A stretch of DNA of 64,000 nucleotides, from NCBI GenBank assembly GCA_937903325.1, contig CALCZR010000003.1, forward strand, positions 3,898 to 67,897. Direction: 5' to 3'. A program made the translations under genes and the position numbers. This DNA comes from an uncultured Candidatus Saccharibacteria bacterium (GTDB lineage Bacteria; Patescibacteriota; Saccharimonadia; Saccharimonadales; AWTP1-31). How positions within the stretch are numbered: position 1 is the first letter of the stretch; each line of letters starts with the position of its first letter. The notes under the pieces were generated by a model. That model was not told the origin of the DNA and did not search any database. It saw nothing but the letters and a program-made list of their open reading frames with translations. Below, in pieces: positions 14,026 through 53,130 of the stretch.

Positions 14026-14041
14026 CACGACACGTCAAGTT

Positions 14042-23867: not shown

Positions 23868-25952
23868 ATGATTCCACTTAAGAAAGATGTTGAAGTAGTT
23901 ATCAGCGACGAGTTTGATACGTCAGACTACTCAATGAATGCTACCGCTGAAGCATTCGCAGCAACCATTGATACTCTCTACACAGATAAAGTTCTGAGTC
24001 CTCTACGAGAGTACATGACGAATGCTGCTGATGCCCATGTGGAAGCAGACCATACAGAAGATTTCGAGGTTAAGCTTCCGACGGCACTAGAGCCGACCGT
24101 TACTATCCGTGACAAAGGTCCAGGTCTGAGCCACGAGCAGATTCTCAGTCATATGACCTGCTTGTTTAGTTCATCTAAAGGCCAGACTAACAAGCAGACA
24201 GGCTATCTTGGTCTAGGCTCTAAGTCAGTCTTTGCTTATACTGATGCAGCTACATTGAAGTCTCGTCACAAGGGCACTGAGCGTACATACTTTATCAGTC
24301 GTGCAGATTCTGGTACACCGAGAATTACTCTGACAAGTGAGAACCCCACTACTGAGCCTGATGGATTTGAGATCAGTTATGCTGTAAAACCCACAGATGT
24401 TAATGCTTTCAAGGAAGCAGCTTCATGGTTGAAGTTTGGTTTCAAGGGCTTTCCTGTGCAGCCTAAGTTCAATATGGCTATCGAGCCAACTTATGCTGCT
24501 AGCAGTCTGAAGTATTCAACCGATCAGGTTGAACTCTACCAGGGTTGCGAAAAGACTGGTGTATATGTTCGTCAAGGACCAGTCCTCTATCCTATCTCTG
24601 TTCGACCTGAATGGTTGGGCTACTACGGTACACTACTGGTGATTAATGTACCTATTGGTACCGTTGCTGTAGCTACATCCCGAGAAGCTCTTTCGATGGA
24701 TGATAAAACCACAGCTAAGATCAATAAGATCATCGCAGATACTAAACAGCACATTATTGATTCAATGGAGAAAGAGGTTGCCCAGGCAGCTTCTTTTGCT
24801 GAAGCTTGCATGAAATATCATGGAAAATATACTTTCTTTCGTGGTATTCAGCCGAAATATCAAGGTAAAGACCTTACTAGCTACGCTTACGTCGATCTAT
24901 CTGATGGTCTAACATATCACGATTCACCATCAAGTGGTTACCATGCTTACAGTAGAATGACATGTTATTGGAATCAGTTTGATAATTATCGTTTCTACTA
25001 CTTTGAAAAAGATGAAGAGACGCCTATTCGTAGCAAGAAACGGTGGGATGAAGAACTGGAGCGCCTGCGAGTCAGTCACCCAGAGGCAATCTGTCGCATC
25101 CTACGTGGAGCTACTAAAGCTAACCTGGCTAAGATGCAGAAAGAGCCTGGCTTCAGTAAAGATCAGTTCATTAAGTTCAGTTCTATCCCCGATCCTGGTC
25201 CTACACCACGTAAGCCATCTCTACGACCGAAAGTTCCGTTGAACACCAGTAAGCAGCTAAAGCCGTACGTGATCGAGAAGCACGGGTTTAGTGCTGCTGC
25301 ATGGTCCCAGGTGGACGTTCCTGCCGATGGCGAATATTACTGGTTGCCAGTGAGCAAAAAGTGTGGTAGTATTGAATGGAAGACAGGGCAACCCGGTGTC
25401 GGTCATGGTACCGATTGGTTCTGCAGTACGCTACAGTCGATGGTTTCGTATCTCAGTGCCGCTTATGTAAGTAAGCCGATGGCGGTGAAGCCGATTCTAT
25501 TGATGACAGCTACAGTACAGAAGCAGATCAAGCCTGAAGAATCTAAGCGTCTCGACAAGGCGATAAGCGTAGCAATTAAAGCTAATCTCGATGAAATGAA
25601 AGGCTACTATTTGAATCAATTCCTTCAGTATGGAACTGGTGCCGGTCTTTCATATGATGCACGCTCGATTCTCTTAACGGAAAATCTTCTTGTCATAACC
25701 CCGTTGAAACGTCCCCAGGACCACATGGGTGGTTATGGCAACCACAGTCATCTAGCCCAAATGCTAACTATGGTAGATGCTCTAGATGATACAGTCAAGG
25801 CTAACGAAGCGTTTCTAGAGCAGCTTCGTAAAGACTACCCTCTTCTCTTCAGTGCACCTTCTGAAAGAGAGCTATTGAAGAATTACATTCTTCTCGTTAA
25901 AGAAGCTAACAAGCAAAAAACAAGAAAAGGAAACACCCGTGTCAAAATTTAG
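23868..25952 (+). CDS. rIIA: rIIA-like protein with N-terminal GHKL (HSP90/histidine-kinase-like) ATPase fold
   Basis: REYMTNAADA (ExxxNAxDA), IRDKGPGLS (DxGxG), GYLGLGSKS (GxxGxG). About 700 aa and followed by an rIIB-like gene. Confidence 0.65.
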   Translation: MIPLKKDVEVVISDEFDTSDYSMNATAEAFAATIDTLYTDKVLSPLREYMTNAADAHVEADHTEDFEVKLPTALEPTVTIRDKGPGLSHEQILSHMTCLFSSSKGQTNKQTGYLGLGSKSVFAYTDAATLKSRHKGTERTYFISRADSGTPRITLTSENPTTEPDGFEISYAVKPTDVNAFKEAASWLKFGFKGFPVQPKFNMAIEPTYAASSLKYSTDQVELYQGCEKTGVYVRQGPVLYPISVRPEWLGYYGTLLVINVPIGTVAVATSREALSMDDKTTAKINKIIADTKQHIIDSMEKEVAQAASFAEACMKYHGKYTFFRGIQPKYQGKDLTSYAYVDLSDGLTYHDSPSSGYHAYSRMTCYWNQFDNYRFYYFEKDEETPIRSKKRWDEELERLRVSHPEAICRILRGATKANLAKMQKEPGFSKDQFIKFSSIPDPGPTPRKPSLRPKVPLNTSKQLKPYVIEKHGFSAAAWSQVDVPADGEYYWLPVSKKCGSIEWKTGQPGVGHGTDWFCSTLQSMVSYLSAAYVSKPMAVKPILLMTATVQKQIKPEESKRLDKAISVAIKANLDEMKGYYLNQFLQYGTGAGLSYDARSILLTENLLVITPLKRPQDHMGGYGNHSHLAQMLTMVDALDDTVKANEAFLEQLRKDYPLLFSAPSERELLKNYILLVKEANKQKTRKGNTRVKI

Positions 25953-26976
25953 TTACGTAGATGGCGTAGATGCACTCGTAATTGTTTCGACTCATCCTGA
26001 TTCGATGGGTCGGCAGTTCGTTGTAGATAAGTCAAGCGTCAATTATCCGAAGGTCAAGGAAGCTCTGAAGAAGTCTGATACGACTGTTCAGGAAATCGAA
26101 GACCTTATCACCCCTGCACGAGCAATTCAGAAGCAGATTGACAGTGAAGATTACCACGGTATCGAGATTATCGATGGTGTGCTTTACTACGAAGAGGAGC
26201 CTGTCATCGGCAGTCTTGCTACTCGTATTGTTCGGCTTCACTCCGAGGGTTTTGAGCTTGAACCTCTAGCGCTTTTTGCTGAGCGTCTCTGGCGTAACCC
26301 TGATCCTCGGGTTCGTGCAGAACTCGATCTCTTCCTAGAGGCTTGTGATCTTCCTATCACCCCTGATGGGTTCTTCCTGGCTTACAAGAAGGTCCGAGAT
26401 AATTACAAAGATATTCATTCTGGTACCTTTGATAACTCTGTTGGTACCACGCCGAGTATGCCACGAGATAAGGTCGATAATGACCGTAACCGTACCTGCT
26501 CGACTGGACTTCACTTCTGTTCGAAGAGCTACCTTCCGCAGTTTGGTGGCAGTTCTGGCTATCGTGTGATGATCGTCAAGGTTAGTCCTGAGGATGTTGT
26601 TGCTATTCCTTCCGATTACAAGAATGCTAAGGGCCGTGCCTGTAAGTATGAGGTTGTCGGTGAGATCGGTCACGAAGCTGCCCAGTCTCGTCAGTGGCCT
26701 GCGGTCAGTTCAGAATATGGTGCTCCACAGCCTGCAAAGATTGTCGGCGTCAGCAAGGCAACGAAGGCGGCTCCTAAGCCCGAGAAGAAAAAGGGTCCGA
26801 ACTCTGGTATTTACATTAATACTGTAGAGCTAGGCAAGCTTAGCCCCGTTTACTACGCTAATGGCGTGAAGAAGCACGGGACAGCCAAGGCTTGGGCCGA
26901 CTCTCATGGTTGGAGTCCTAGTACGGTACGTAATTGGAAGACTCGTCTTCTTCGTGCTGGCGCTAAGTTCGACTGA
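25939..26976 (+). CDS. rIIB: rIIB-like protein
   Basis: ITPDGFFLAYKKVRDNYKDIHSGTFDNSVG...CSTGLHFCSKSYLPQFGGS...VSPEDVVAIPSDYKNAKGRACKYEVV matches my recollection of the conserved T4 rIIB core; GTG start. Confidence 0.65.
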   Translation: MSKFSYVDGVDALVIVSTHPDSMGRQFVVDKSSVNYPKVKEALKKSDTTVQEIEDLITPARAIQKQIDSEDYHGIEIIDGVLYYEEEPVIGSLATRIVRLHSEGFELEPLALFAERLWRNPDPRVRAELDLFLEACDLPITPDGFFLAYKKVRDNYKDIHSGTFDNSVGTTPSMPRDKVDNDRNRTCSTGLHFCSKSYLPQFGGSSGYRVMIVKVSPEDVVAIPSDYKNAKGRACKYEVVGEIGHEAAQSRQWPAVSSEYGAPQPAKIVGVSKATKAAPKPEKKKGPNSGIYINTVELGKLSPVYYANGVKKHGTAKAWADSHGWSPSTVRNWKTRLLRAGAKFD

Positions 26977-29549: not shown

Positions 29550-30863
29550 ATGTCGTATCAAGCAATCGTAGCAACACTAGAAAACGTCCAGCCACACCCT
29601 AACGCAGATCGACTTCAGATCGCCACTGTTCTGAACGGCTCTCACAATATTGTTGTAGGTCTAGAGAACAAGACGGGTGACGTAGGCGTGTATTTTGCCA
29701 CTGATGGCAAGCTGTCAGAAGAATACTGCATCCAGAATGAACTCTTTCCAATCTATGACCAGTCTGGTGCTAAGATTGGTGGCGGTATGTTCGACCCGAA
29801 GAACCGTCGAGTCCGAGCACAGAACCTCCGTTCAGTCAAGTCTGATGGCTACTTCGCATCGCTAGACAGCGTAGCATTTACAGGAGTAAATCTTGAGGAT
29901 CTGTATGTCGGTTTCCAGTTCGATACTTTACATGATGTTCTGATCTGCGAGAAGTACTACACTCCGCAAACCCTACGTGCGATGAAGGGTGGTACAGCAT
30001 CAACTAAGAAAGTTTGTGCGATGCTTCCAATGCATCAAGATACGAAGCAGTTTGCGTATGAAGCTGATGCTATCCCGGTTGGTTCTATCTGTACTACTAC
30101 TCTGAAGATTCATGGTACTTCTCATCGTCTAGCTAATGCGCTAGTTGATGTGGAGCATCCTCAGAAGTGGCGTCACAAGATCCTCCGTAAGACTCCACGT
30201 ATCACGCAAGAATGGAAGATTGTTCACGGTACACGTCGTGTGATCCTCGGTGAGCATGACGAGAGAATGTCTTTCTACGGTACAGACAAGTTCCGTTACG
30301 ATGCTACAGCTTTCCTAGAGCCTAACCTGAAAAAGGGTGAGGTTATCTACGGTGAGATTGTTGGTTATGTGAATGATACTACGCTTGTCATGGGCGAAGT
30401 ATCTACTAAGGATCTGAAGAAAGACCGAGAGTTCAAGAGTTTCTTCGGAGGTACTATCCCCGAGACAATGAAGTACACGTACAATTGTCTACCTGGACAG
30501 GCTGATTTCTATGTCTATCGTATTGCTATGGCAGACGAAGAAGGTAATCTTGTAGAGCTTTCTTGGCCTCAGGTTAAGAAGCGTTGCCGGGAACTTGGTG
30601 CGAAATTCTGCCCAGACTTTGGTCTACTTCCTTACACTGTTTCGAAGAAGGAAGGTATCCTTGAACTTGAAGAGATCGTAGAGAACTTCAACTATGGTGC
30701 TGATCCTATCGACCCGAGTCATATTCGTGAGGGTGTAGTTGTTCGTGTTGATCAGCCTGATGGTTCAGTACGTTTCTTGAAGAGCAAAAATTATTTCTTT
30801 AAAGTTTTAGAATCTATTATTAAAGCTAATGAAGAATACGTCGATGTTGAAGAGGTTGGCTGA
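29550..30863 (+). CDS. ATP-dependent RNA ligase with N-terminal OB/tRNA-binding-like domain
   Basis: N-terminus VQPHPNADRLQIATV (tRNA-binding OB-like). Nucleotidyltransferase motifs TLKIHGTS (KxxG), REGVVVRVD (EGxxxK/R), FLKSKNYFFK (KxK). Architecture like Rnl5-type (DraRnl-like) ligases. Confidence 0.75.
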   Translation: MSYQAIVATLENVQPHPNADRLQIATVLNGSHNIVVGLENKTGDVGVYFATDGKLSEEYCIQNELFPIYDQSGAKIGGGMFDPKNRRVRAQNLRSVKSDGYFASLDSVAFTGVNLEDLYVGFQFDTLHDVLICEKYYTPQTLRAMKGGTASTKKVCAMLPMHQDTKQFAYEADAIPVGSICTTTLKIHGTSHRLANALVDVEHPQKWRHKILRKTPRITQEWKIVHGTRRVILGEHDERMSFYGTDKFRYDATAFLEPNLKKGEVIYGEIVGYVNDTTLVMGEVSTKDLKKDREFKSFFGGTIPETMKYTYNCLPGQADFYVYRIAMADEEGNLVELSWPQVKKRCRELGAKFCPDFGLLPYTVSKKEGILELEEIVENFNYGADPIDPSHIREGVVVRVDQPDGSVRFLKSKNYFFKVLESIIKANEEYVDVEEVG

Positions 30864-31285
30864 TGAAAACAATTAAGATCAAAGATTGGGTTGCGGCCCT
30901 ACGTTCAGGAGATTACAGCCAGTGTGCGGGTGCCCTTTGTCGTGCTGATGACATTACTGCAACAGTATCGTATTGCTGTCTCGGTGTTGCCGCTAAGGCA
31001 GCGGACGCTCTAGATATTGGTCGTATCCATGTTGAAACAAAAGATGGTGTAACACGCACTATCAACCTAGACCTTGGCCTACCAGAAATTACCACTCCTG
31101 CCCGTACTCTTGAAGAGGCTGCGGTACGATGGGTCAATGATACTGGAGACGTCCGTGGCTCTCTTCAGAAAAGGCTTGTTCTTCTTAATGATGATGGCGC
31201 AAGCTTTAGTGACATTGCTGACGAGATCGAGAAGTATTGTGATCCCGAAGCCGAGATTCAGTTCCTAGAGAAATCAGATTTCTAA
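30863..31285 (+). CDS. family-A paralogue
   Basis: IKDWVAALRSGDYSQCAGAL...YCCLGVAA; TGATG and TAATG junctions with the ligase and kinase genes. Confidence 0.65.
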   Translation: MKTIKIKDWVAALRSGDYSQCAGALCRADDITATVSYCCLGVAAKAADALDIGRIHVETKDGVTRTINLDLGLPEITTPARTLEEAAVRWVNDTGDVRGSLQKRLVLLNDDGASFSDIADEIEKYCDPEAEIQFLEKSDF

Positions 31286-31893
31286 TGCTATACATTCCAG
31301 TTGGTCCGCCAGCTTGCGGAAAATCCACGCTAGCTGATCAGATGGTGGCGTCAGGTATTCTGGATGCAGATGCGATTGTTAGTTCCGATAGACTAAGAGT
31401 TCTTCTTACCGGCGATGTTAATTGTCAGACAGCTAACGGCGAAGTGTTCAGTATCGCTCACAAGATTGCTGCAACAAGACTCAAGTACAATCAGGATGTT
31501 TACCTTGATGCTACTAATCTGGTAGCCAAAGATATCAAAAAGATTCTTGATCTTGCACCTAACCTTGATGATGTAGAGATTATCATCTCAGATACTTCTC
31601 ATGAACTTTGTACTGAGCGTAACAATCGTCGCTCAAGAACTGTGCCACAGGAAGCTATGCAAAAGTTTTACAATCGTCAGAACAACTTTGATCTGATCAG
31701 CCTACTTGCAGAGTATCCTGTTGGTACGATTCTTCTATCAGCCAAGCTTGCAGAGGTCAAGGATACAGTATTTCCTCAGATCTTTCCCCCCGATGAGCCT
31801 GTAGAACCTCGTGAGACGCCCGTGAAGGCCCCTCGCATCCTCAATTCGTTCGTTCCGGCATGGTTACCGCTGGAACCACCGTTCGACGCTTAG
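31285..31893 (+). CDS. P-loop polynucleotide-kinase-like protein (AAA_33 / T4 Pnk kinase-domain-like)
   Basis: MLYIPVGPPACGKSTLA Walker A at the extreme N-terminus, DATN, RNNRRSR lid-like segment; Pro-rich tail. Confidence 0.6.
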   Translation: MLYIPVGPPACGKSTLADQMVASGILDADAIVSSDRLRVLLTGDVNCQTANGEVFSIAHKIAATRLKYNQDVYLDATNLVAKDIKKILDLAPNLDDVEIIISDTSHELCTERNNRRSRTVPQEAMQKFYNRQNNFDLISLLAEYPVGTILLSAKLAEVKDTVFPQIFPPDEPVEPRETPVKAPRILNSFVPAWLPLEPPFDA

Positions 31894-34015: not shown

Positions 34016-35515
34016 GTGACGTTCTTACTACTTGACAAAGAATATGAAATTTATCCTAAAGAACTTGTAGGTGGTAAGGCGTCCAATCTTCACCAGATGA
34101 TCCACGATGGCTTGCCTGTGCCGCAAGCGTTTGTCATCAGTGTAGACGAATGTTTCAAACTCGATTTCACCAGTGAACTCCACGAACATAACTCAGAGTT
34201 TGGATTGAGACTGAGTAGTCACATTCGTTACCTATCAATGATGACAGGCAAGCAGTGGAACAGTGACTATAATCCCCTACTTGTCTCTGTAAGATCAGGT
34301 GCCCCCATCTCCATGCCAGGTATGATGGAGACAGTACTGAACATTGGTCTGACCAGAAATAATCTTGATGCTTTCGTAGAAGCTCGTGGTGCTGACAGAG
34401 CCTTCGGGTTAGACTGTTACCGTAGACTGATCCAGATGTATGGTGTGACAGTTCATGGTATCCCAGCCGAAGCGTTCAGTAGTGTATATAATTCTGCAAG
34501 GATTTTCTACGAGGAACTGGACGAGAAAGCAAACGAAAACCTTGTCCGTCTTTACGAAGGTATTTTCTTTCAGCACGTCGGTATCGTCTTCCCTGATGAT
34601 CCTAACGAACAACTTCTACAAGCATGTAACGCAGTGTTCCGGTCTTGGCACAGCGAGAAAGCCAAGACTTATCGTGACCTAGAAGGTATTCCTCATGATA
34701 TGGGTACCGCTGTCACTGTGCAAGAAATGGTCTTTGGTAACCTTGACCGTCAGTCAGCTACAGGCGTTGTGTTCACTCATGATCCTAATACTGGTAAGCT
34801 CGGATGGTATGGCGACTTTCTTGTCGGGGCTCAAGGCGAAGATGTTGTTGCCGGTACACATAAGGTTCTCCATATCCAAGAGATTCTACAGGACGAGAAC
34901 TTGCGTAAGGCCGGTAAGGATCTACAGGTTACAATCGGTGGACTCTTCCACCGCTACAAGAGTATTCTTGATGTGGAGTTTACTATCGAATCAGGTAAGC
35001 TTTACATCTTGCAGTACCGTCAAGCTAAATGTTCACGTCAGGCAACCATTCGTTCTCTGATGGATATGGCACGACAAGGCGATATCAGTGTGCTAGATGG
35101 CACCAGTAAGATGATGGAACTGCTGCCGCCTATTGACCGTGGTACTCAAGACCCTGGTAACTTGACGCTACTCGGTAAAGGTCTAGGTGCCACTGAAGGT
35201 ATTGTTGTAGGTCAGATTGCGATTGGTCGTGATACTGCACGGGAATACCAAGAGCAAGGTATCAGTTATATCTATGTAGCCCATGAGACTGCACCAGACG
35301 ACGTTGAACAAATGAAGGGTGCCGTAGGTATCCTGACAGCCTCAGGTGGTCTGGTATCTCATGCTGCGCTTATTGCTAGAGGCTGGAACAAGACCTGTGT
35401 TCTAGGATTTGACCGGATCAAAGTACTCGAAGATCATTTCACATTCAATGGTGAGATGTATAAGAATGGGTCTTTGATGAAAATTAATGGCTCCACGGGA
35501 GAAATATTCGCATGA
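34016..35515 (+). CDS. PPDK/PEP-synthase-like dikinase fragment: ATP-grasp plus phospho-His swivel domain, no PEP/pyruvate-binding domain
   Basis: GGKASNL; VSVRSGAPISMPGMMETVLNIGL; AVTVQEMVFGN..ATGVVFTHDPNTG..GAQGEDVVAGT; LDVEFTIESGKLYILQYRQAK; GILTASGGLVSHAALIARGWNKTCVLG (His449 = CAT 35360-35362). Ends 50 aa after the His. Confidence 0.85.
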   Translation: MTFLLLDKEYEIYPKELVGGKASNLHQMIHDGLPVPQAFVISVDECFKLDFTSELHEHNSEFGLRLSSHIRYLSMMTGKQWNSDYNPLLVSVRSGAPISMPGMMETVLNIGLTRNNLDAFVEARGADRAFGLDCYRRLIQMYGVTVHGIPAEAFSSVYNSARIFYEELDEKANENLVRLYEGIFFQHVGIVFPDDPNEQLLQACNAVFRSWHSEKAKTYRDLEGIPHDMGTAVTVQEMVFGNLDRQSATGVVFTHDPNTGKLGWYGDFLVGAQGEDVVAGTHKVLHIQEILQDENLRKAGKDLQVTIGGLFHRYKSILDVEFTIESGKLYILQYRQAKCSRQATIRSLMDMARQGDISVLDGTSKMMELLPPIDRGTQDPGNLTLLGKGLGATEGIVVGQIAIGRDTAREYQEQGISYIYVAHETAPDDVEQMKGAVGILTASGGLVSHAALIARGWNKTCVLGFDRIKVLEDHFTFNGEMYKNGSLMKINGSTGEIFA

Positions 35516-36642
35516 ACTATGAATTGTCTCCTATGGAGAAAAAATATATGAAGCTTTTGGATGAACTCGAAGAGTTAAATCCAGGGGATGTAGTTGAAGC
35601 TAGTCGGATTAGTATTGAGATCAAGAATCTTGAAGACAAGATGTGGCTCGATCAGCAAGGTGAAAATACTGAGGGCATATCAGTTACTTGCCCTGACTGC
35701 TTCAAGACGGATGTTATCCATGTACCATGCGGTGACTATGTATACGATTGTATCTGTGGTGACAGCACAGAAGAATACTACTGTGGATGGTGCGGTCAGA
35801 ACTTTGATCCTGGATCAGAGCCGCTGGAAGTACAAAGCCTAGACGACTGGATGAGCAAGTACCAGGATCAGGTACTAGGTGATCTAGGGTTTACACAAGA
35901 TCCTCTGCCACAGAAGCCGATGAAAGATTGTAACTCCACGAGTAGACATCTTCATCAGCCTGTAACCCTACCTAATGGTGTGATTGTGCATTGCACTGCT
36001 CACCAGAATGCTAACAAGATCAACCAGAAACCAGACTTTGGCCTGTATGCCGATAGTGCTTGGGTCAGGACTTGTAAGTGGCGTAACGAAATCATCAACT
36101 GGCCTGACTTTAATCTCCCGGCAGACCTTGATGTAGCACTCAACCAGATTGAAGATGCCTACAAGCGTTGTGAAGCTGGTGAACATGTTGACATCGGTTG
36201 CCTAGGTGCTCATGGTCGCACAGGAACTATCCTCGCAATTATGGTGCTCTTGGCTACCAAGGGTGACCTCAGTGGACCGAAAGCATGTTCATGGGTATGG
36301 GAAAACTATTGCACTCATGCTATTGAGAACAAGAACCAAGAATGGTATGTTGCTTATGCCGCAGGTTATCTCTTCGGCCATGACATCCCCGATGAACCGG
36401 CGAAGCCAGTATCTAGTCAGGCAAGTATTTGTCTCCCCGTAGAGCATTTTGCTATGTATTCAGGTGGGCGCAGAGTCTGTGTGAATCCGAAGTGCAGTTG
36501 GTGGGAGAAAGATATCATCGAACTTTACAATGACCAGAAGATCGCTGGCGTTCCAGCCGAGACACTTGCAGCAGACAACCGATACCCGACACTACTAGAA
36601 AAGTATCAGGTGAATGATGGATCAAACGATCAAATTAGTTGA
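35512..36642 (+). CDS. Zn-ribbon plus Cys-based phosphatase-fold (WPD loop / CX5R) protein
   Basis: ATGA-coupled to the dikinase. CPDC..PCGDYVYDCICG..YCGWCG (aa 60-94). INWPDFNLP (aa 195-203). 31 aa after the WPD Asp: DIGCLGAHGRTGTILAIMVLL (Cys230 = TGC 36199-36201), resembling HCxxGxGRTGT of small PTPs. Confidence 0.7.
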   Translation: MNYELSPMEKKYMKLLDELEELNPGDVVEASRISIEIKNLEDKMWLDQQGENTEGISVTCPDCFKTDVIHVPCGDYVYDCICGDSTEEYYCGWCGQNFDPGSEPLEVQSLDDWMSKYQDQVLGDLGFTQDPLPQKPMKDCNSTSRHLHQPVTLPNGVIVHCTAHQNANKINQKPDFGLYADSAWVRTCKWRNEIINWPDFNLPADLDVALNQIEDAYKRCEAGEHVDIGCLGAHGRTGTILAIMVLLATKGDLSGPKACSWVWENYCTHAIENKNQEWYVAYAAGYLFGHDIPDEPAKPVSSQASICLPVEHFAMYSGGRRVCVNPKCSWWEKDIIELYNDQKIAGVPAETLAADNRYPTLLEKYQVNDGSNDQIS

Positions 36643-38335
36643 AGATGAACTTAGTAATATCACTCAAGTTTATCAACTTGTTGATGATGAGTGGGTGTGC
36701 ATCGGCGATATAGCTAACGGGTTACCCGACTCGGCATTTGAATCAGCAATAGAAAACATGCAAAAGAAAGCATTTATGGACGATGACTACGAGATTGCAG
36801 ATATCCTTGCGATGCTAGAAGAAGATGATGACCTAGAAATCAATGAGACAGATGAAGATTACATCCTAGACGAGATTAAGAATGCACCAGAGCTACCACC
36901 TAAGTTCAGTAAAAGTGGATTCGATCTGTCATTCCTGCTTGAAGATGAGTACCGTGAACGGTGGCAAGCAAAAGATGGTTGGACTAAAGTATGGCCTGAC
37001 ATCGATCTGAAAATTGATCCTTGTATGGCTGCCGCAGATAATTATCTTCTGTTCGGTATTGCTAACAACTCTTTTGTAGAGATCGTGCCACGATACTTTC
37101 CTTCCGATGAAGAGATTCGTCTAGCTGGTGAACTACTTGAAGCAACCGAGGTAGAGATCGAACAACGTGTTCGTGATGTCATGGTTCTCCGTGACGATGA
37201 TCCTACTTTGAAACTTGAAGAACTGAATCGTGAAGCTGATACACAGTATCGTATCTTGATCGACCATCTCGATGAAAGCTTCCGTCAGTACAGTCACCTT
37301 GCTTGTGGTGGTGAGCTACGATACATGCTGAAGTCTGACCCTTTCTACAGTCAGGAACGACGCTGGGCTTGGACTCAATGGGCTTTTGTCTATGAGAAGT
37401 ATGGCATCAAAGGTCTAGAAACAATGACCAAGATGTTTAACGAGAATGGTTATGGTGCCTTTGGTGGTAAGAAATGGGCAGCCGCATCAGAGATCCTTCT
37501 CGGTCGTGAAGCAGGAACTCTTGGTCCTGATGAACTAACGAACAAGCAGTTATTTATCGACCGTGTGTTCACTCTAGAACATAACACTGGTTCTTTCTTG
37601 AACAAGATGGCCTGGGCCAATAATCGTACAGGTCGTGACGGTGCTAGCGGTCATTGGGCTACTATGAAAAATACTGTTCTTCCCGCTCACTGCTCTAACC
37701 CTGTTGACATTCGGACGATGTATCGTTATGCGAGTGAGAACGTACAGAATCTTCTGATGAAGTATTTCAGTCTTGCTGAACAGTATGGTCTAGCTATCAA
37801 CGGTATTTGGGAAGAAAAGAAACCTCAGAATGAACTTTTGAAAAGTACAACTGTAAAGAATAGTTCTGCTCAAATTCTTGACTGGTCAGATGTTCCTGAC
37901 TTCATCGAAGATGAGATTGAAGAAGAAGAAGCGCCTACTATTTATGAAGGTCCTCTAGATGCTATGATTGCCACCCAGCAAAAATTGCTAGGCCAACAGG
38001 AAGCTTTTCCTTTCTACGTAACGACTGCAGAGGGTAACCACCCAGGCATTGTCGTAGCCAGTGATCCTTATGCCGCCCCAGTCTATGCTACTGCGGAGAT
38101 GCCTAATGGTCCACAGCATGAGCTTACTAAGCCTTACCTAGAGGCAAATTGGACCGGAAAAATGTACACTGAAATAGGTGTACTCGAAACAGGTAATCCA
38201 TGGTTATATTGCTACGCTCCTGGCACGCTCGAACATTTTGATTTTGCAATCTACGATGACTATCCACCTGTGAATTTGATTCATGCTGTAATTGAATGTC
38301 ACCTTAAGACACTGGAGTCTAATGGATCTAAATAG
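36614..38335 (+). CDS. hypothetical large protein (573 aa), acidic N-terminus
   Basis: Long ORF overlapping the upstream gene by 29 nt. Conserved-looking core HLACGGELRYML...FGGKKWAAASEILLG...FTLEHNTGSFLNKMAW; no family recognised. Confidence 0.7.
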   Translation: MMDQTIKLVEDELSNITQVYQLVDDEWVCIGDIANGLPDSAFESAIENMQKKAFMDDDYEIADILAMLEEDDDLEINETDEDYILDEIKNAPELPPKFSKSGFDLSFLLEDEYRERWQAKDGWTKVWPDIDLKIDPCMAAADNYLLFGIANNSFVEIVPRYFPSDEEIRLAGELLEATEVEIEQRVRDVMVLRDDDPTLKLEELNREADTQYRILIDHLDESFRQYSHLACGGELRYMLKSDPFYSQERRWAWTQWAFVYEKYGIKGLETMTKMFNENGYGAFGGKKWAAASEILLGREAGTLGPDELTNKQLFIDRVFTLEHNTGSFLNKMAWANNRTGRDGASGHWATMKNTVLPAHCSNPVDIRTMYRYASENVQNLLMKYFSLAEQYGLAINGIWEEKKPQNELLKSTTVKNSSAQILDWSDVPDFIEDEIEEEEAPTIYEGPLDAMIATQQKLLGQQEAFPFYVTTAEGNHPGIVVASDPYAAPVYATAEMPNGPQHELTKPYLEANWTGKMYTEIGVLETGNPWLYCYAPGTLEHFDFAIYDDYPPVNLIHAVIECHLKTLESNGSK

Positions 38336-39263
38336 ACTAGAGAAACAAGGTATTCCCACTCTAGGTATCCTGACATGGTACTCGGTAGATAATGAAGCTT
38401 CTATTGGCTACACAGAGTTTCGTGATATCATTAAAGAGTATAATGCTCCGCTAACTATTATGAAGGCTCCGAAACCGGAGAATGTTTTCAGGCGAGCATG
38501 TGAAGCCATTGACTTTACTTTCGACACTGCAGATGATACTATCATTACTTTCTCTATGAAAGATGAAGGCTTCCATAAGACCAAGGTTACTCGGTCGCTC
38601 TACGCAGAGTATCAGCGTAAAGATGTGACAGTCAAGGTCAAGGTTGCAACTGCCGTACTAGATAAGAAAACCAAAGACATCGAATGGGAATATCATCCAG
38701 ATACGACAGATATTGGAGGAGATGCTCTACCTGATGCAGCAGCACTAGCAGAGTATTACATCGCTTGTTACATGGAAGAACATGCAGATGCGCTCTACGC
38801 TCTACCTATTCGTGAAAGTATTCGTAAAGCAATCGATGGTTCCCTATGTGGTGTCAGTCTTAAAACTGCTGGCGGGGGTGTCTATTTTATCCCCCGAGTG
38901 AACTTCGAAGAGTTTGAAGCTATGGCTCTAGCCAGTTACGATATACCTATGGTAGTTGTAGAGTATATTCCTTGCCTGGATAACCGTGATAGTCGTAAGA
39001 TGGTAGAAGATTATCTTTTCAACCATCTTCATAAAGAATTACTGACGATGGAGTCAGCTATAGATGATCTACAATTGCTACTCTTTTCTGAAGAGCAAGT
39101 TTCGGCTAAAAAAGTAACCGAGATTCAAGATATGATTGATGCCTACAAGTCAAGACTGGCAGCGTATACATGGATTTCTAGAAAGCATGACCTGTATACA
39201 TCTATTGAAGGTGTACAGCGAGAGTTAGATAGACTAGTAGATGGAGATGAAGAAGATGAATGA
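38322..39263 (+). CDS. hypothetical protein (313 aa)
   Basis: GGAG-N5-ATG 38322, 14-nt overlap; contains GGVYFIPRVNFEEFEAM; no firm family call. Confidence 0.65.
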   Translation: MDLNRLEKQGIPTLGILTWYSVDNEASIGYTEFRDIIKEYNAPLTIMKAPKPENVFRRACEAIDFTFDTADDTIITFSMKDEGFHKTKVTRSLYAEYQRKDVTVKVKVATAVLDKKTKDIEWEYHPDTTDIGGDALPDAAALAEYYIACYMEEHADALYALPIRESIRKAIDGSLCGVSLKTAGGGVYFIPRVNFEEFEAMALASYDIPMVVVEYIPCLDNRDSRKMVEDYLFNHLHKELLTMESAIDDLQLLLFSEEQVSAKKVTEIQDMIDAYKSRLAAYTWISRKHDLYTSIEGVQRELDRLVDGDEEDE

Positions 39264-39828
39264 TGAAGAGGAATACCCAGATCTAGAAGCTCTACTCCAG
39301 GATGAAGAGGAGGTGTTAGAAAAGAAACTCCTAACCGCAATATATGGCGACGACGAGGAAGAGGATGATGAAAATGAAGATGACGTCTACATCCCAACCA
39401 CAGATGACGAGATCGCAGCAGTAACAGCTTTGAAAGAAGCCATCAAGAATGCTAACGTTCAGAAAGTAGCAGCTAACCTGGACTCAGACCTAGCATCTTC
39501 TAATCCTATCGAAGGTTGGCTTGGTCTTATCAATACTCCAGTACAGCCACTGGAACTGACTGAGATCCCCGAGGGTTTCTCTCATCAGACCCTTGTCATT
39601 ATTGAAGTGTCAGCAATGAGTCCTTCTACTTTCATGGAACGAATGAGACGCTTTGTTGGTGGTCTGAATACTCCTGATACGATGAAAGCTAATGTCGTGA
39701 CTGTAACCGATGGTAAGATGTATGCTGGACTTACCTTCACTGGTGATAAGGCTGGCGGACGAGAAGTACCATTCAACAAAAATTTATGGAACGCTGTAAT
39801 CAGAGTTTCAGAAAAGGATATTGTATGA
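39256..39828 (+). CDS. hypothetical protein with extremely acidic N-terminal 55 aa
   Basis: NDEEEYPDLEALLQDEEEVLEKK...DDEEEDDENEDDVYIPTTDDE; start ATG 39256 (or 39241). Confidence 0.6.
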   Translation: MNDEEEYPDLEALLQDEEEVLEKKLLTAIYGDDEEEDDENEDDVYIPTTDDEIAAVTALKEAIKNANVQKVAANLDSDLASSNPIEGWLGLINTPVQPLELTEIPEGFSHQTLVIIEVSAMSPSTFMERMRRFVGGLNTPDTMKANVVTVTDGKMYAGLTFTGDKAGGREVPFNKNLWNAVIRVSEKDIV

Positions 39829-40028
39829 GCGTGGTTCACGATGTGTCACTAGATGGGTTACACGTAACCTGTACTTGTGGTGAACTCGATACCTATATTA
39901 CAGATGAAACATTTTACCTAGCTGTAGCACAGAGACATTCTCTGCATCTAGGTGTATGGCCATTCGAGCAACCTCTCGGTGAGAAGTACGACGGATGGCC
40001 TGAGAACGAAAAGGAGAACGATGACTGA
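39825..40028 (+). CDS. hypothetical protein (67 aa)
   Basis: AAGGATATTGT-ATG 39825, ATGA overlap. Confidence 0.5.
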   Translation: MSVVHDVSLDGLHVTCTCGELDTYITDETFYLAVAQRHSLHLGVWPFEQPLGEKYDGWPENEKENDD

Positions 40029-40950
40029 AGATGAAGCTAAAAAGGGTAACCTTTTCGATGTCCTAGAGTGGGAAAACTATATCGGTCAGGAGAAGATCAA
40101 GGAACGTCTACAAATCAAGATCCAAGCGGCGATGGCTCGATTCGAGCAGATGGATCATGCTCTTATCCTCGGGCAATCTGGTACAGGTAAGACAACTATC
40201 GCCAGACTTATTGCGAAGGAACATAACGCTTCTTTCCTCGACATCATGATCACCCCGAGTTTTACACCTAAGACTCTGGCCAAGATGCTGATTCAATTCG
40301 AAGAGGAAGAGGATGGTGGCATTGTTCTTCTTGACGAGCTTCACAACTTCACCAAGAAAGATCAGCACTACCTTTACTCTATCCTTCTTGATAACTGTAT
40401 CAGTTATGACTCTGGTAAGCGTCATTACTTTACTAAGCCTATCACGATCATCGCTGCAACTACGGACGAGAAGGATCTGACGCCTGCACTCAGAGGCCGT
40501 TTTGGTGCCCCGTATCGCCTCCGTGACTACACCGATAAAGAGATGGGGCAGATCGTAGAACGCATGGCTTACAAGGCCGGTCTAGACCCTACGATCGAAA
40601 CCTGTGTAGCACTAGGTCGTGCAAGTGCTGGCTCCCCAAGACAGGCAGCAGACCTTATCAAGACTGCACGAGATCTAGGAAGCATGGACCCAGGTCCGAT
40701 CCTAGAACTTTCAGAGATCACCAAGGACGGTCTGACCGTAGATCATATTGCTATCCTTGAAAGTCTCCGTAACCTTGGTAACATTGCCGGTCTAGAAAAC
40801 ATCAGTAACCACTCTGGTCGTGCCAGAGAAGATATTGTCACCCTAGAGAAGTTGCTCGTTAAGAAAGGGCTTATCGACATGGGTGGCAAAGGTCGTGAAT
40901 TAACCATCAAGGGTATGAAAGCCCTGAACGAAGCAGTAGGTAAAAAATGA
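40021..40950 (+). CDS. RuvB-like AAA+ ATPase
   Basis: AAGGAGAACG-ATG 40021. YIGQEKIKERL...MDHALILGQSGTGKTTIARLIA (Walker A), VLLDELH (Walker B), IIAATTDEKDLTPALRGRFG (sensor 1 / Arg finger region), collinear with RuvB. Confidence 0.8.
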   Translation: MTEDEAKKGNLFDVLEWENYIGQEKIKERLQIKIQAAMARFEQMDHALILGQSGTGKTTIARLIAKEHNASFLDIMITPSFTPKTLAKMLIQFEEEEDGGIVLLDELHNFTKKDQHYLYSILLDNCISYDSGKRHYFTKPITIIAATTDEKDLTPALRGRFGAPYRLRDYTDKEMGQIVERMAYKAGLDPTIETCVALGRASAGSPRQAADLIKTARDLGSMDPGPILELSEITKDGLTVDHIAILESLRNLGNIAGLENISNHSGRAREDIVTLEKLLVKKGLIDMGGKGRELTIKGMKALNEAVGKK

Positions 40951-44249: not shown

Positions 44250-44531
44250 ATGAGCTTAAACAAAGACGAACTTGTCGTCGGTGGGATTTACCAGGTCGAT
44301 GCACGTAATTACTTCGCTGCAATCTGGGATGGTGAGAAGTTTCTCGGCCCTTCTAGGATCGATGGGAACTGGGAACTCGTGCCTGAATGGCACTACTCGG
44401 ATGGTTATCCTAGGGGAACAGTAACTAGTGCCCGCAAGATCGGCCCACTAAACATTACTATCAATACTTATGGTGGTAATTTCATTGCGTTACTAGCAGC
44501 GCTTAGTGAAATTAGTTTCGAGGACTACTGA
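44250..44531 (+). CDS. hypothetical protein (93 aa)
   Basis: AAAAGGATTAAAA-ATG. Confidence 0.6.
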   Translation: MSLNKDELVVGGIYQVDARNYFAAIWDGEKFLGPSRIDGNWELVPEWHYSDGYPRGTVTSARKIGPLNITINTYGGNFIALLAALSEISFEDY

Positions 44532-44866
44532 TGATCCATATCATGTCATTTGGTTACAAGTATACTGACATCCCCGAAGGTTACATGGAGATTGATTGTC
44601 GTAAAATTCGTAACCCATTCACCCATCCAACCTTTAAAGGTAAGACTTGGCTAGATGCTGGTCTACAAGGCTATGTGATCGAAGATCCCAGGACCGCAGA
44701 ACTTCTATGGAAGGCCAGAGATGCTATCGGATCTAACACAGAATTCTCCGTGGCTTTCGGGTGTGTCGGAGGATCTCACCGCTCTGTAATTTTAGCGGAA
44801 CTCTTGAAGGACATATTGCGTGACAGAGAGGTAGAAGTGATACATAGAGATTTGGAGAAACCATGA
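44531..44866 (+). CDS. stand-alone RapZ C-terminal-domain-like protein
   Basis: IMSFGYKYTDIP..IDCRKIRNPF...TFKGKT.LD....Y......FSVAFGCVGGSHRSVILAELL...HRDLEK is collinear with the RapZ CTD (SFGFKYG.P..FDVRFLPNP...TG.D...AIGCTGGKHRSV...HR.LEK). No P-loop N-domain. Confidence 0.7.
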   Translation: MIHIMSFGYKYTDIPEGYMEIDCRKIRNPFTHPTFKGKTWLDAGLQGYVIEDPRTAELLWKARDAIGSNTEFSVAFGCVGGSHRSVILAELLKDILRDREVEVIHRDLEKP

Positions 44867-45264
44867 AGGACTTAGTTAATACAAGAGAAGAAAATGACTA
44901 CTGGTATTTCAGTGGTAGTTATGGTGAACTCATTGATTCATTTGAAATTGAAACTCTTATCGAAGTACATGATCACGATTACCAGGGTGACTCTCGTTAT
45001 CTTTTTAAGAGTGGAGAAGAGTATGGTATCCTGATCTTTGGTTGGGGATCTTGTTCCGGCTGTGATTCACTTGAGGCATGTTCCACCTTTGAAGAAGTAG
45101 TGCGGCTACGTGATGTTCTCTGGGACTCCACCGAATGGCACACCTTCGATGATATGAAGACCTACGTCGAGACTAGAGATTGGGAAGGCCAATACTTCTA
45201 CCATGACAAGGAATCAAAAGAGTTTATCAATGCTGTCAAGAGTTACTTTGGAGTTGAACTATGA
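44863..45264 (+). CDS. hypothetical protein (133 aa)
   Basis: ATGA overlap; FGWGSCSGCDSLEAC motif. Confidence 0.6.
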   Translation: MKDLVNTREENDYWYFSGSYGELIDSFEIETLIEVHDHDYQGDSRYLFKSGEEYGILIFGWGSCSGCDSLEACSTFEEVVRLRDVLWDSTEWHTFDDMKTYVETRDWEGQYFYHDKESKEFINAVKSYFGVEL

Positions 45265-45842
45265 CTAAGCCTGTAATCCTGGTGGATCAAGATGGCGTGC
45301 TAGCTGACTTCGATGCAAGAGCGCAAGAAGTCTGTGCCCAGAATGGTTGGCACCTAGACTTTGGCCATCCTTCTGAACGGCAGAAACGGTTCCTTACCGA
45401 TCACGTTATTGACAAGCACCATCGCAATCAGCTACGTAAACACATTGACTTCACCCCTTATTTTGCAGACCTTCCAGTGATTGAAGGTGCTCTACAAGGC
45501 ATGAAAGAACTTGACAGGGTAGCTGAAGTATGGATCTGTAGTAAGCCTCTCGACAACAACACTTCATGTGCGAGTGACAAAGTTGCATGGGTGAAACGTC
45601 ATCTACCCAAGTTTCATGGTAGACTTATCCTAGCCGGTGACAAGAGCCTAGTCCAGGGCGATGTTCTGCTCGATGATGCGCCTAAACCGAAGTGGTTTGA
45701 ACGAGCTACTTGGCAGCCACTAGTCTATACTCAGCCTTTTAACTCTCATCCAGGTTCAGAACTGTATGATCTACCCCATTTCAAGTGGGGCGATCCAATC
45801 GAAAACATTCTCAATCAAGTAAAGGACAAAGAAAATGCCTGA
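45261..45842 (+). CDS. 5'(3')-deoxyribonucleotidase (HAD superfamily, NT5C-like)
   Basis: ILVDQDGVLADFD (DxDGVLADF nucleophile motif), later CSKP and LLDDAP motifs. Confidence 0.8.
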   Translation: MTKPVILVDQDGVLADFDARAQEVCAQNGWHLDFGHPSERQKRFLTDHVIDKHHRNQLRKHIDFTPYFADLPVIEGALQGMKELDRVAEVWICSKPLDNNTSCASDKVAWVKRHLPKFHGRLILAGDKSLVQGDVLLDDAPKPKWFERATWQPLVYTQPFNSHPGSELYDLPHFKWGDPIENILNQVKDKENA

Positions 45843-48255: not shown

Positions 48256-48464
48256 TGACAGAAAAAGGTCTACTAGAAACCATGCATGAAACGATTGAAG
48301 CACTAGCTGGAACAGTAGATAGTTTAACCAAAACAGTTGAATCACTTCAGACTCGGTTGCATGAACATATCACAATCAAGTCACCTTGGAATCTGAAGAT
48401 CGAAGATCAGATTACAGAACTTCAGAATAGACTAGACCGAGCAGAGGACCCGAGTTACCCATGA
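48255..48464 (+). CDS. hypothetical coiled-coil protein (69 aa)
   Basis: ORF; TAATG junction. Confidence 0.55.
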   Translation: MTEKGLLETMHETIEALAGTVDSLTKTVESLQTRLHEHITIKSPWNLKIEDQITELQNRLDRAEDPSYP

Positions 48465-49429
48465 AGAAACTAGGCGTCGTCGTAGGACGATTTCAGACAG
48501 AAATTCTGACCGCCACACACGTCGATTTAATCGATACTTCGCTCAGAGAAAATGATCATACGCTTATTGTGGTTGGAGTTGGACCGTTACCAACAACGGC
48601 TCGTAACCCACTCTCTTTCAACATGAGAGCAGCTATGATCGCTGATCATCTAACAGATACCGGGCATAGCACAGACACGCAAGTTAACATCATTGAACAG
48701 TTAGCGGATCATCCTGACGACAGGATCTGGTCAAATAGCCTAGACACTCTTATTTATGGCGCTGCAATGCAGCTAACCAATGAAGAAGTAGAAGTCACTC
48801 TGTACCACGGGCGGGATTCGTTCCGAGAAGTATATAGTGGGAACTACCCTAACTTTCATGAAATTGATGAGCATCCTCTAGACTCTGCGACCAGACGACG
48901 GGAAAATATTGGCAGGTACGATTGGCCCTATGTTCCTAAACGTTTTCGAGAAGGTGTTATCTGGGCTAACCAGAATCGTTTCCCTACGGTCTACTCTTGT
49001 GTAGATGCGGCTGTAGTATGGAACGAGTACTCAGATAAGATGAGACTGACTAACAAATACCTACTTCTTATCACGAAAGATATTGCAGAAGGTTACATGT
49101 TCCCTGGTGGATTCGCCGAGCTTAACTCAACAGATGAGGATGATGCCCGCCGTGAAGTCATGGAAGAAACCGGCATCGACATGTCTTTCGTTCACGCAGA
49201 ATGGCTCGGATCATTTACACAGGATGATTGGCGTTACCGTTCAGAAGTAGATGAAATTCGTACTCGTCTATTCTTATTTGAACCATATGGCCCACTGAGT
49301 GAACGACCTAAAGCGGTAGGTGCTGACGATGCAGCTACGGCACAGTGGGTTAACATTAAAGATCTGAAAGTTGAAGACTTTAACAAGTGCCACCGGGCAC
49401 TATTTGAAAGGCTATTAGAAGAACTATGA
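48461..49429 (+). CDS. bifunctional NMN adenylyltransferase / Nudix hydrolase (NadM-Nudix / NatV-like)
   Basis: N-terminus VVVGRFQTEILTATHVDLI (nucleotidyltransferase GRFxP.H.GH-like, degenerate). C-terminal Nudix box GGFAELNSTDEDDARREVMEETGI (GX5EX7REUXEEXGU). Confidence 0.75.
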   Translation: MKKLGVVVGRFQTEILTATHVDLIDTSLRENDHTLIVVGVGPLPTTARNPLSFNMRAAMIADHLTDTGHSTDTQVNIIEQLADHPDDRIWSNSLDTLIYGAAMQLTNEEVEVTLYHGRDSFREVYSGNYPNFHEIDEHPLDSATRRRENIGRYDWPYVPKRFREGVIWANQNRFPTVYSCVDAAVVWNEYSDKMRLTNKYLLLITKDIAEGYMFPGGFAELNSTDEDDARREVMEETGIDMSFVHAEWLGSFTQDDWRYRSEVDEIRTRLFLFEPYGPLSERPKAVGADDAATAQWVNIKDLKVEDFNKCHRALFERLLEEL

Positions 49430-50784: not shown

Positions 50785-51326
50785 ACTTCTATCTAGACAC
50801 AGAATTTATGGCTGACGCTAACGCTTGTAGCGTCAAGCCACTGTCAATAGCTCTCGTGGCAGAGACTGGCGAGTCACTTTACTTGGTAATCTCTGACGCA
50901 CCCAGAGAGGAGGGCAACGAATTCGTACAAGAATTCGTTGTGCCATTTCTAGATATCTCCCCAACTGGCGAGCGTCTGACTGACCAGGTAATTACAGATG
51001 GAATTTATACCTTTGGGTCGGTACTACGAAAAGATGCTGCTGACGTAATCAAATGGTGGGTCACCGCTCTTTCGGCTCAGCCTCAATTTTGGGCTTGGTA
51101 TGCATCATATGATTGGGTATGTTTCTGTGATTTGCTCGGTGGCTTTTTGAATGTACCGGTCAATTGGCCGCAGTATATTCACGATCTTCGTCTCTTCAGC
51201 ACAAGGATGCTAGAATATAAGGGAGATCTTACTGTCCCTGAGCATCATTGTCTAAGAGATGCTTATCAACTGCAACAAACGGCACTTTATATTAAAATAA
51301 AGAGGAAAAATGAAAGATATGTCTAA
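50781..51326 (+). CDS. DEDDh 3'-5' exonuclease (Rv2179c-like exoribonuclease fold)
   Basis: FYLDTEF (DxE), WAWYASYDWVCF (second acidic motif), PEHHCLRDA (Hx4D). Confidence 0.65.
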   Translation: MNFYLDTEFMADANACSVKPLSIALVAETGESLYLVISDAPREEGNEFVQEFVVPFLDISPTGERLTDQVITDGIYTFGSVLRKDAADVIKWWVTALSAQPQFWAWYASYDWVCFCDLLGGFLNVPVNWPQYIHDLRLFSTRMLEYKGDLTVPEHHCLRDAYQLQQTALYIKIKRKNERYV

Positions 51327-51342
51327 AATTTAAAGGATGACT

Positions 51343-51486
51343 ATGAGTAAAGTATTTCAATTGCATTTAGATATCGATGCGACCCTGGCTGTTGAAGAGA
51401 TTTGGCCTGACGGTGAGCTAGAGGAAAAGAAGCAAAGAGTTCTAGATCTAGCTGAAGAACTAGGCATCGAGATTGATTTCCTATGA
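51343..51486 (+). CDS. hypothetical small acidic protein (47 aa, below track cutoff)
   Basis: AAGGATGACT-ATG 51343; stop forms ATGA with the ligase start. Confidence 0.45.
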   Translation: MSKVFQLHLDIDATLAVEEIWPDGELEEKKQRVLDLAEELGIEIDFL

Positions 51487-52867: not shown

Positions 52868-52886
52868 ATAAGATCTAAGTAAATTG

Positions 52887-52911
52887 GGAGGGCTTCGGCC
52901 CTCCTTTTTTT
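52887..52911 (+). terminator. rho-independent terminator
   Basis: GGAGGGC-TTCG-GCCCTCC (52887-52904) followed by TTTTTTT (52905-52911), 20 nt after the stop at 52867. Confidence 0.85.
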
Positions 52912-53121: not shown

Positions 53122-53130
53122 TACATTGCG

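Follow-up and report, generated by a model that had tools for sequence, protein, structure and literature searches.

A putative split dikinase with a partner phosphatase in a large phage genome, and a candidate acceptor domain for it

The 64-kb stretch of contig CALCZR010000003.1 analysed here (64,000 nucleotides (nt) in all, hereafter the window) comes from a large phage genome. It raises the question of what is done by three proteins of 573, 313, and 190 amino acids (aa), which were regarded as orphans and which lie, within a run of eight overlapping genes, between a pair of presumed phosphotransfer genes upstream and genes for RuvB-like and Ku-like proteins downstream. The answer reached here is that the three proteins are not a single unit. 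The conserved core of the 573-aa protein, termed the X domain, is read as the acceptor-substrate domain of a split His-swivel dikinase because of its gene linkage and its in-frame fusions to dikinases in other phages. On balance, and with reasonable though not high confidence, the genes at 34016-38335, probably together with that at 39256-39828, are judged to encode a phage-specific split dikinase plus phosphatase. The genes concerned are as follows:

34016-35515, + strand: truncated protein like pyruvate, phosphate dikinase (PPDK), 499 aa (gene 1)
35512-36642, + strand: Cys-dependent dual-specificity/tyrosine-type phosphatase, 376 aa (gene 2)
36614-38335, + strand: X-domain protein, 573 aa, with the core at nt ~36986-37813
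39256-39828, + strand: 190-aa protein with an acidic tail and a conserved C-terminal domain (nt ~39523-39825)

The product of gene 1 has an ATP-grasp nucleotide-binding domain (Pfam PPDK_N, E=4.9e-37) and a phospho-histidine swivel domain (Pfam PEP-utilizers, E=2.6e-15), with the catalytic His motif lying within 'GGLVSHAALIARG', of which the SHAA begins at aa 448. Its match to TIGR01828 (E=9e-133) reaches 444 bits, where the cutoff is 843, and spans positions 14-501 of the 865 in the model; the TIM-barrel domain for phosphoenolpyruvate (PEP) and pyruvate is missing, and Pfam gives no match to PEP-utilizers_C. Judged by its domain content, gene 1 is a PPDK minus its PEP/pyruvate domain. By these data, the short phage "PPDK" cannot be a PPDK and appears as the ATP/His half of a different enzyme.

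Genes 1 and 2 had been taken together as a "dikinase pair", a description that fails for gene 2, which encodes a Cys-dependent dual-specificity phosphatase (DSP). Its active site, 'GCLGAHGRTG', is of the CX5R type, with the Cys at aa 230, and the N-terminal region ahead of it is Cys-rich and zinc-ribbon-like. In an alignment, the Cys and Arg of CX5R, an upstream Asp at the general-acid position, and an E..Q loop are invariant in 15 homologues. The Pfam matches of the protein itself are weak (PTP-SAK and Y_phosphatase); several homologues, including those in loci L011 and L013, exceed the Pfam PTP-SAK or Tc-R-P cutoffs, and the family profile finds structures of small DSPs and protein-tyrosine phosphatases (PTPs) at E ~1e-14 (ShufPTP, SsoPTP, and DUSP23, E 1e-14 to 1e-9). 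The protein in the window also matches PHROG 17568 (phrog_17568), which is labelled 'thymidylate synthase', and gp141 of the Stenotrophomonas phages DLP3/DLP5 is a 'thymidylate synthase' in the published gene table versus a protein-tyrosine phosphatase by that paper's own CD-search (PMC7326821). In both places the label looks like a propagated misannotation.

The relation of the X gene to these two genes emerges from a linkage survey, for which 80 viral loci with PPDK-like genes were fetched; short PPDKs were defined as those of <860 aa and were counted only where >=3.5 kb of downstream sequence was present. An X gene lies 0.8-2 kb downstream of 33 of the 34 short viral PPDKs, together with one or two PTP genes, whereas among the 31 full-length PPDKs an X gene occurs in the locus of only one. 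In that locus (L101:5693-11550) the order is X, PTP, and then an apparently full-length PPDK of 870 aa, so that X is upstream; this PPDK, the sole full-length one linked to X, shows by eye the PEP-utilizer C-terminal motif. Seen from the side of X, a PTP-family gene adjoins the X gene or lies <=~300 bp away in 12 of the 13 loci L001-L013, and in the thirteenth (L010) the contig edge comes just after X. These loci include lineages with <30% identity, in which the order is X and then PTP. An intact CX5R phosphatase gene always adjoins X or lies within ~1 kb of it. In the isolated phages Vibrio Ares1, Rhizobium RHph_Y1_11, and Rhodobacter RcZahn, the PPDK gene is followed by small genes and then by PTP and X; one more gene, which in the Rhizobium and Rhodobacter phages is a second PTP, separates X from the genes for DNA polymerase I and portal, in that order. 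The published gene table of Stenotrophomonas DLP3 gives the same cassette order (PMC7326821).

Direct fusions join the two halves in a single chain. At L048:8932-11286 a truncated PPDK continues in frame into a C-terminal X domain, and a metagenome scan seeded with this variant returned 18 more loci with the same PPDK-N-X layout. The fusions, from L048 and among L106-L124, total 14 distinct proteins (<90% identity) of 715-1010 aa, exemplified by L107:4336-6729 and L116:4177-7206, and a PTP gene follows in most. Where the phospho-His motif is found, the X motif D[HR]xxxLQHN lies ~230-280 aa past it; the position of X in the fusions is thus approximately that of the PEP/pyruvate domain in PPDK. 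Among 159 family members, there is no fusion of X to PTP, DUF6744 (the Pfam family of the 313-aa protein), Ku, or the 190-aa domain. The earlier proposal that the 573-aa protein acts with the upstream phosphotransfer genes is borne out by these fusions and by the near-obligate PPDK/PTP linkage.

Some variants of the layout may be noted here. L129:1-2145 is a possible fusion in reverse order, with a weak X-motif at aa 159-201 and then a PPDK-like region at aa 275-678. Cassettes of the siphovirus type (L041-L104) have proteins of ~105 aa and ~119 aa (the latter with a Zn-ribbon) between PPDK and the first PTP and a ~285-aa protein after the second, and all three extra genes are without a counterpart in the window. 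A weak resemblance links the C-terminal part of the 285-aa protein to the post-PTP gene of the fusion-type loci (hhalign probability 46%); the 285-aa protein was also considered as a DUF6744 protein and rejected (hhalign probability 0.25%).

What, then, is the X domain? The conserved core spans aa ~125-400 of the 573-aa protein and carries the motifs HLACGGELRYML at aa 228, FGGKKWAAASEILLG at aa 283, and FTLEHNTGSFLNKMAW at aa 319. The acidic N-terminus and the last 170 aa, which flank the core, are not conserved and are unstructured in the AlphaFold2 model, which gives the core an all-alpha fold with a pLDDT of ~90 over aa 100-400. A word-indexed search found only 22 homologues; a profile search of 1.84 billion representatives yielded 870 clusters (50% identity) at E<=0.001, and 212 at E<=1e-30. 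Across sets of 23-55 diverse members, Y226, G233, E234, R236, R249, W253, W288, D316, R317, H323, K331, and W334 are invariant, and E234, R236, W288, D316, H323, N324, and K331 are kept in an alignment of members that includes two sequences of the fused clade. Such a set of invariant polar and aromatic residues is as expected of a predicted active or binding site.

Comparisons with known families were negative. Pfam recognises no domain in the 573-aa protein or in 10 long relatives, and 23 diverse X cores share no weak Pfam match at a reporting limit of E=10, a scan in which the HMMER filters remove most matches above ~0.1. NCBIfam, PHROG, and PADLOC were uninformative for X and for the 190-aa and 67-aa proteins of the block, sequence-profile searches of the PDB with X (alignments A1 and A8) gave no significant match, and Foldseek comparison of the X model with the PDB and BFVD gave nothing below E=0.05, with TM-scores of ~0.1. 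By eye, the X motifs were also compared with those of HEPN (R-x5-H), Fic/Doc-like (HxFx[DN]GNxR), HD, and heme-oxygenase-like diiron proteins; all four readings were dropped, since the spacing is unfit, the His of ExxH is a Tyr here, and no model matched. The 573-aa protein has a conserved core with no Pfam or PDB match and belongs to a large family.

This family is, as far as a two-motif pattern scan shows, essentially confined to phages. The scan, which covered one genome per species from 185,579 bacterial and archaeal species, found one X locus, on a 149-kb contig that is binned as Coxiellaceae, carries the whole eight-gene cassette, and may be phage DNA itself.

The 190-aa protein has its acidic residues in a different region from its conserved ones. 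Its first 58 aa, which include DDEEEDDENEDD at aa 32, are 43% Asp/Glu, and the pI of the whole protein is 4.1; the conserved part is the C-terminal ~100 aa (aa ~90-190), which is non-acidic, has T112, L113, E128, R129, R132, N138, K144, and G158 as invariants (alignment A4), and on its sequence suggests an alpha/beta fold. Homologues in L002 (103 aa), L005 (139 aa), and L018 (114 aa) are without the acidic tail. In distant loci, a similar domain comes directly after the PTP gene (L006, E=3e-6; L009, 4e-5; L008, 0.017), and these three have no RuvB-like or Ku-like genes within the loci examined. The 190-aa protein thus looks like an accessory of the phosphotransfer module. L018 has minimal versions throughout, with a PTP of 150 aa and an X protein of 305 aa besides the short homologue just given; therefore, the tails are dispensable.

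Architecture and linkage are seen directly in these genomes, and catalysis can be sketched by analogy with PPDK, PEP synthase, glucan, water dikinase, and rifampin phosphotransferase. Gene 1 would use ATP to load phosphate onto its catalytic His. The X core, as a separate polypeptide in this phage and as part of the dikinase chain in others, would replace the lost domain, bind an acceptor, and take the phosphate from His~P. The CX5R phosphatase would then hydrolyse a phosphoester, either in the product or in an intermediate of the pathway, and the outcome may be either a phosphorylate/dephosphorylate cycle or a kinase-activated transfer step. The 190-aa protein would assist through its small conserved C-terminal domain, its acidic tail being dispensable, and the DUF6744 gene more likely goes with those for the RuvB-like, Ku-like, and ligase proteins than with this module.

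Since the module is found among genes for replication and repair, the likeliest acceptors are nucleic acids, nucleotides, and DNA-linked or glycan substrates; the neighbours of the module in unrelated phages include genes for DNA polymerase A / I, SSB, terminase, RuvB-like and Ku-like proteins, and ligases. DNA of DLP3, a carrier of the cassette, resists all 15 restriction enzymes tried, with a modification that was left unidentified (PMC7326821). Both the neighbours and this resistance fit a DNA-directed role. RNA-repair and NAD-salvage functions counter host defences in other phages, and an anti-defence substrate is equally open because the window is rich in genes of both kinds.

Several points weigh against such a split dikinase. 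X resembles no known acceptor domain in structure or sequence, and catalysis by X is consequently deduced from the architecture only. The site is not strictly fixed, because R317, which is invariant in the split forms, becomes His in the fused clade (the Arg of the 'DR' motif). The Foldseek negatives are themselves weak, because the BFVD run listed none of the Vibrio-phage X homologues that BFVD might be expected to hold. The distant loci L006-L012 have no PPDK gene <=8 kb from X-PTP, so that either the kinase is elsewhere in the genome or X-PTP works without a kinase. PPDKs of the siphovirus type have an extra C-terminal region of ~200 aa, which was tested as an equivalent of some window protein and found to have no counterpart. 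Finally, a kinase and a phosphatase with a shared substrate would cancel each other out unless their target groups or their timing differ.

Comparison with known systems indicates which parts of the scheme have precedents. With PPDK and PEP synthase, gene 1 shares homology over the ATP-grasp and phospho-His domains, and the fused relatives share the succession of nucleotide domain, His domain, and C-terminal acceptor domain; they differ in that the TIM barrel is replaced by an unrelated all-alpha domain, here a separate protein two genes downstream, and consequently pyruvate is not the acceptor to be expected. In its mode of action, the nearest known system is glucan, water dikinase (GWD/PWD) with the phosphatases SEX4, LSF2, and laforin, which run a phosphorylation/dephosphorylation cycle on a polymer and in which a PPDK-family dikinase is likewise paired with a DSP-type Cys phosphatase. 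Unlike GWD, X has no detected homology to carbohydrate-binding modules, and the phage system is encoded almost only by phages and among replication genes. Acceptor-domain swaps are tolerated in the PPDK family, since rifampin phosphotransferase (RPH) and the Campylobacter glutamine kinase Cj1418 both have the TIM barrel exchanged for another acceptor-binding domain. Their domain order is different, however, neither is known to have a partner phosphatase, and Foldseek comparison of X with the PDB, RPH structures included, gave no match.

It has been postulated that phage 'PPDK' is an auxiliary metabolic gene which interconverts pyruvate and PEP for host glycolysis, and if so, its neighbours would be unrelated to it. 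The first 500 residues are indeed highly similar to those of a bona fide PPDK, and the phage gene has been annotated as a glycolytic auxiliary gene in this way (PMC12038007, PMC9229204, PMC10141217). However, the PEP/pyruvate domain is missing from gene 1, and it is the short PPDKs that are linked to X and PTP genes and fused to X, the full-length ones not being linked. For the short phage forms the glycolytic reading is very unlikely, and as an account of the present locus it merits next to no credence. A less improbable, if still decidedly unlikely, alternative is that X is non-catalytic. It would then be a regulatory, targeting, or scaffold subunit for a kinase and a phosphatase whose target is a protein of the host or the phage, or would itself be the protein on which they act. 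Among solved structures, those nearest to the phosphatase are of small protein-tyrosine and dual-specificity phosphatases; moreover, X, the 190-aa protein, and the DUF6744 protein have acidic tails of the protein-contact kind, and such tails serve protein-protein contacts in phage replisomes. These tails are missing in the minimal versions, however; in addition, 14 distinct proteins place X roughly where the substrate domain would be, and the invariant polar set (E, R, D, H, N, K) with Trp suits a binding or active site better.

Of greater weight, while nevertheless unlikely, is the proposal that the module hypermodifies DNA. In this model, the dikinase, like 5-HMUDK, would add phosphate to phage DNA at a hydroxymethyl or sugar group, X would displace the activated group or transfer onto it in the manner of an aGPT-Pplase, and the phosphatase would tidy up; it is a specific version of the split dikinase reading that names the acceptor. 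Thymidine hypermodification by 5-HMUDK and aGPT-Pplase, which Iyer (2013) and Lee (2018) reportedly described, offers a possible functional analogue, in that a phage kinase and an all-alpha enzyme are again found at replication loci, aGPT-Pplases being said to have been predicted as all-alpha by Iyer et al. in 2013. The position of the cassette next to DNA polymerase I, SSB, and terminase genes in unrelated phages also speaks for the proposal, as does the resistance of DLP3 DNA. Against it, 5-HMUDK is a P-loop enzyme and not a dikinase, and no thymidylate-synthase-like hydroxymethylase or TET/JBP gene is present among the scanned open reading frames (ORFs) of the window, which is 64 kb of the genome. 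Furthermore, neither X nor 32 relatives have a Pfam match, and the models searched would include those for aGPT-Pplases if Pfam-A has them. Glycosyltransferase and sugar-nucleotide genes of DLP3 and of the Rhizobium phages could alone explain the restriction resistance. A literature search on dikinases and hypermodification in phages returned nothing. Still another idea, that the 190-aa protein mimics DNA and counters restriction as Ocr and ArdA do, drew on the acidic stretch and the low pI described above. It is very improbable and has no support from homologues, because the acidic tail is missing in relatives that keep the C-terminal domain; unlike in Ocr/ArdA, the acidity is in a non-conserved tail, and the conserved ~100-aa domain is neutral. 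In addition, the protein has no Pfam, PHROG, PADLOC, or PDB match (profile A4 against the PDB gave nothing significant), and acidity is general in this cassette, all eight of its proteins having a pI of 4.1-6.0.

Taken together, the results point to a further form of PPDK-family dikinase, in which the pyruvate domain would be replaced by a novel, often split-off domain and which is always accompanied by a Cys phosphatase. The other half of the enzyme is then a large un-annotated family found almost only in phages, and the reading gives a testable assignment to a widespread dark-matter family, corrects the "PPDK" and PHROG 17568 "thymidylate synthase" annotations, and points to unexplored phosphotransfer chemistry at phage replication loci. 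It is possible, though rather doubtful, that PPDK-N, X, and the DSP phosphatase make up a macromolecule dikinase of a class not recognised before, with a phosphatase dedicated to it. If this is true, the targets of phosphorylation during replication would be the DNA of the phage or host, a sugar linked to DNA, or some other polymer; the module would represent either a new route of DNA hypermodification or a new counter-defence chemistry, and X would be a new enzyme fold. Culturable carriers include Vibrio Ares1 and VHS1-like phages, Stenotrophomonas DLP3/DLP5, Rhodobacter RcZahn, and Rhizobium RHph_Y1_11.

The remaining genes of the run bear on the question of whether all eight form one unit. 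They are:

38322-39263, + strand: DUF6744 protein, 313 aa from its ATG
39825-40028, + strand: 67-aa protein
40021-40950, + strand: RuvB-like AAA+ ATPase, 309 aa
40947-41711, + strand: probable distant Ku-like DNA-end-binding protein, 254 aa

Between 34016 and 41711 the eight ORFs, all on the + strand, overlap successively by 4, 29, 14, 8, 4, 8, and 4 nt, and the ORFs, overlaps, and quoted motifs of the earlier note are all present as it gave them. Translational coupling had been put forward as a special feature on this basis. However, 65 of 107 junctions on the + strand overlap in a crude ORF chain, and a second, longer run of nine overlaps occurs late in that chain, past ~44 kb; the run of seven is consequently not distinctive, because overlaps are the norm in this genome. 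Promoter-like and terminator-like sites show no enrichment over shuffled sequence. Conservation of gene order, which had been named beforehand as a test, was found: the whole block is syntenic in relatives at 25-55% identity. Close relatives were absent from 50,697 phage records, among which DNA and protein BLAST of the block region gave 0 nucleotide or protein matches and BLAST of the X, DUF6744, and Ku-like proteins likewise gave 0. One functional unit of eight genes is nevertheless contradicted, since many phages have the PPDK-PTP-X core without RuvB, Ku, or DUF6744, and since DUF6744 occurs in L021 with RuvB-like, Ku-like, and ligase genes and with no phosphotransfer genes nearby. Nor are the three proteins the sole large unannotated ones of the window, because Pfam has no match for the ORFs at 13889-15457 (+, 522 aa), 61501-63288 (-, 595 aa), and 25939-26976 (+, 345 aa).

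The 313-aa protein, which had been called unannotatable, belongs to Pfam DUF6744 (PF20529; 54.0 bits against a cutoff of 27, aa 13-277). The family is present in 9 of 9 homologues, the length is likewise 313 aa in relative P0023, and the motif GGVYFIPRVNFEEF lies at aa 185. An AlphaFold2 model (pLDDT 88) has an N-terminal alpha/beta domain, with the conserved basic motifs PKPxNVFRRA, PIRESIR, and GGGVYFIP, and then a C-terminal three-helix coiled coil; neither sequence profile (A3) nor Foldseek (nothing below E=0.05; TM-scores ~0.1) gave a PDB match, and a literature search on DUF6744 returned nothing. Outside the close clade DUF6744 occurs only in L021, a viral contig of 137 kb and high GC content in which the block L021:1-13809 encodes RuvB-like, Ku-like, ATP-dependent DNA ligase, MoxR AAA+, vWA, DUF6744, RNA ligase, and RlaP proteins, and in which the 16.7 kb examined contain no X, PTP, or PPDK gene. 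This block is a nucleic-acid repair supermodule with DUF6744, and by co-occurrence only, DUF6744 is tentatively assigned to the DNA-end/branch-processing genes.

The 67-aa protein is conserved only in the close clade (L001, L003, L002, and L017) and has no family match in Pfam, PHROG, or NCBIfam. The RuvB-like protein has all three domains (Pfam RuvB_N, E=5e-25; AAA_lid_4; RuvB_C, E=1.9e-9) and scores 158 bits against NCBIfam RuvB NF000868, under the equivalog cutoff of 282, so that it is RuvB-like and not demonstrably orthologous. The 254-aa protein gives a weak match to TIGR02772 Ku_bact (E=1.2e-6; 28 bits against a cutoff of 150, aa 120-228), its family profile finds the bacterial Ku structures 8v53, 9i91, and 9vnq at E 0.02-0.1, and an ATP-dependent DNA ligase gene adjoins the Ku-like gene in relatives; its assignment as a probable distant Ku-like DNA-end-binding protein, made from sequence, is weak but consistent. 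These genes resemble the RuvAB system in the RuvB-like protein with its three domains and, weakly, the Ku/LigD system in the Ku-like protein, with a ligase nearby in relatives, and they differ from them in that the scores are under the equivalog cutoffs and no RuvA is recognised.

Elsewhere in the window there are genes for a DnaE-type polymerase III alpha, RecA, a DnaB-like helicase, and DNA and RNA ligases. An RNA ligase and an AAA_33 (PNK-like) kinase are encoded just upstream of the cassette at 29550-31893 (+), the cassette being preceded by an RNA ligase gene in relatives L001 and the P0014 contig as well, and a RapZ C-terminal-domain protein and an NT5C 5'-nucleotidase are encoded downstream at 44531-45842 (+). 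A set for NAD salvage or reconstitution at 19009-19695 and 48461-50784 (+) comprises a PnuC transporter for nicotinamide mononucleotide (NMN), a 322-aa Nudix-domain protein, and NAMPT; it is presumably NARP2-like, of the kind described as phage counter-defence. The gene for a 626-aa AAA_28-type ATPase at 19825-21705 (+) is intein-interrupted, because an intein splicing domain and an HNH endonuclease lie inside it. Other features of the + strand are a Fic-domain protein (423-1016), a Phage_VG64 family protein (3361-3834; the family is named for a mycobacteriophage), a SpoU-type RNA 2'-O-methylase (10963-11454), and a tRNA-Ile with anticodon TAT (11618-11694). The RecA, polymerase III alpha, and DnaB-like genes are on the - strand, and cumulative GC skew reaches its maximum at ~50-52 kb, where gene orientation switches from + to - (~50000-54000).

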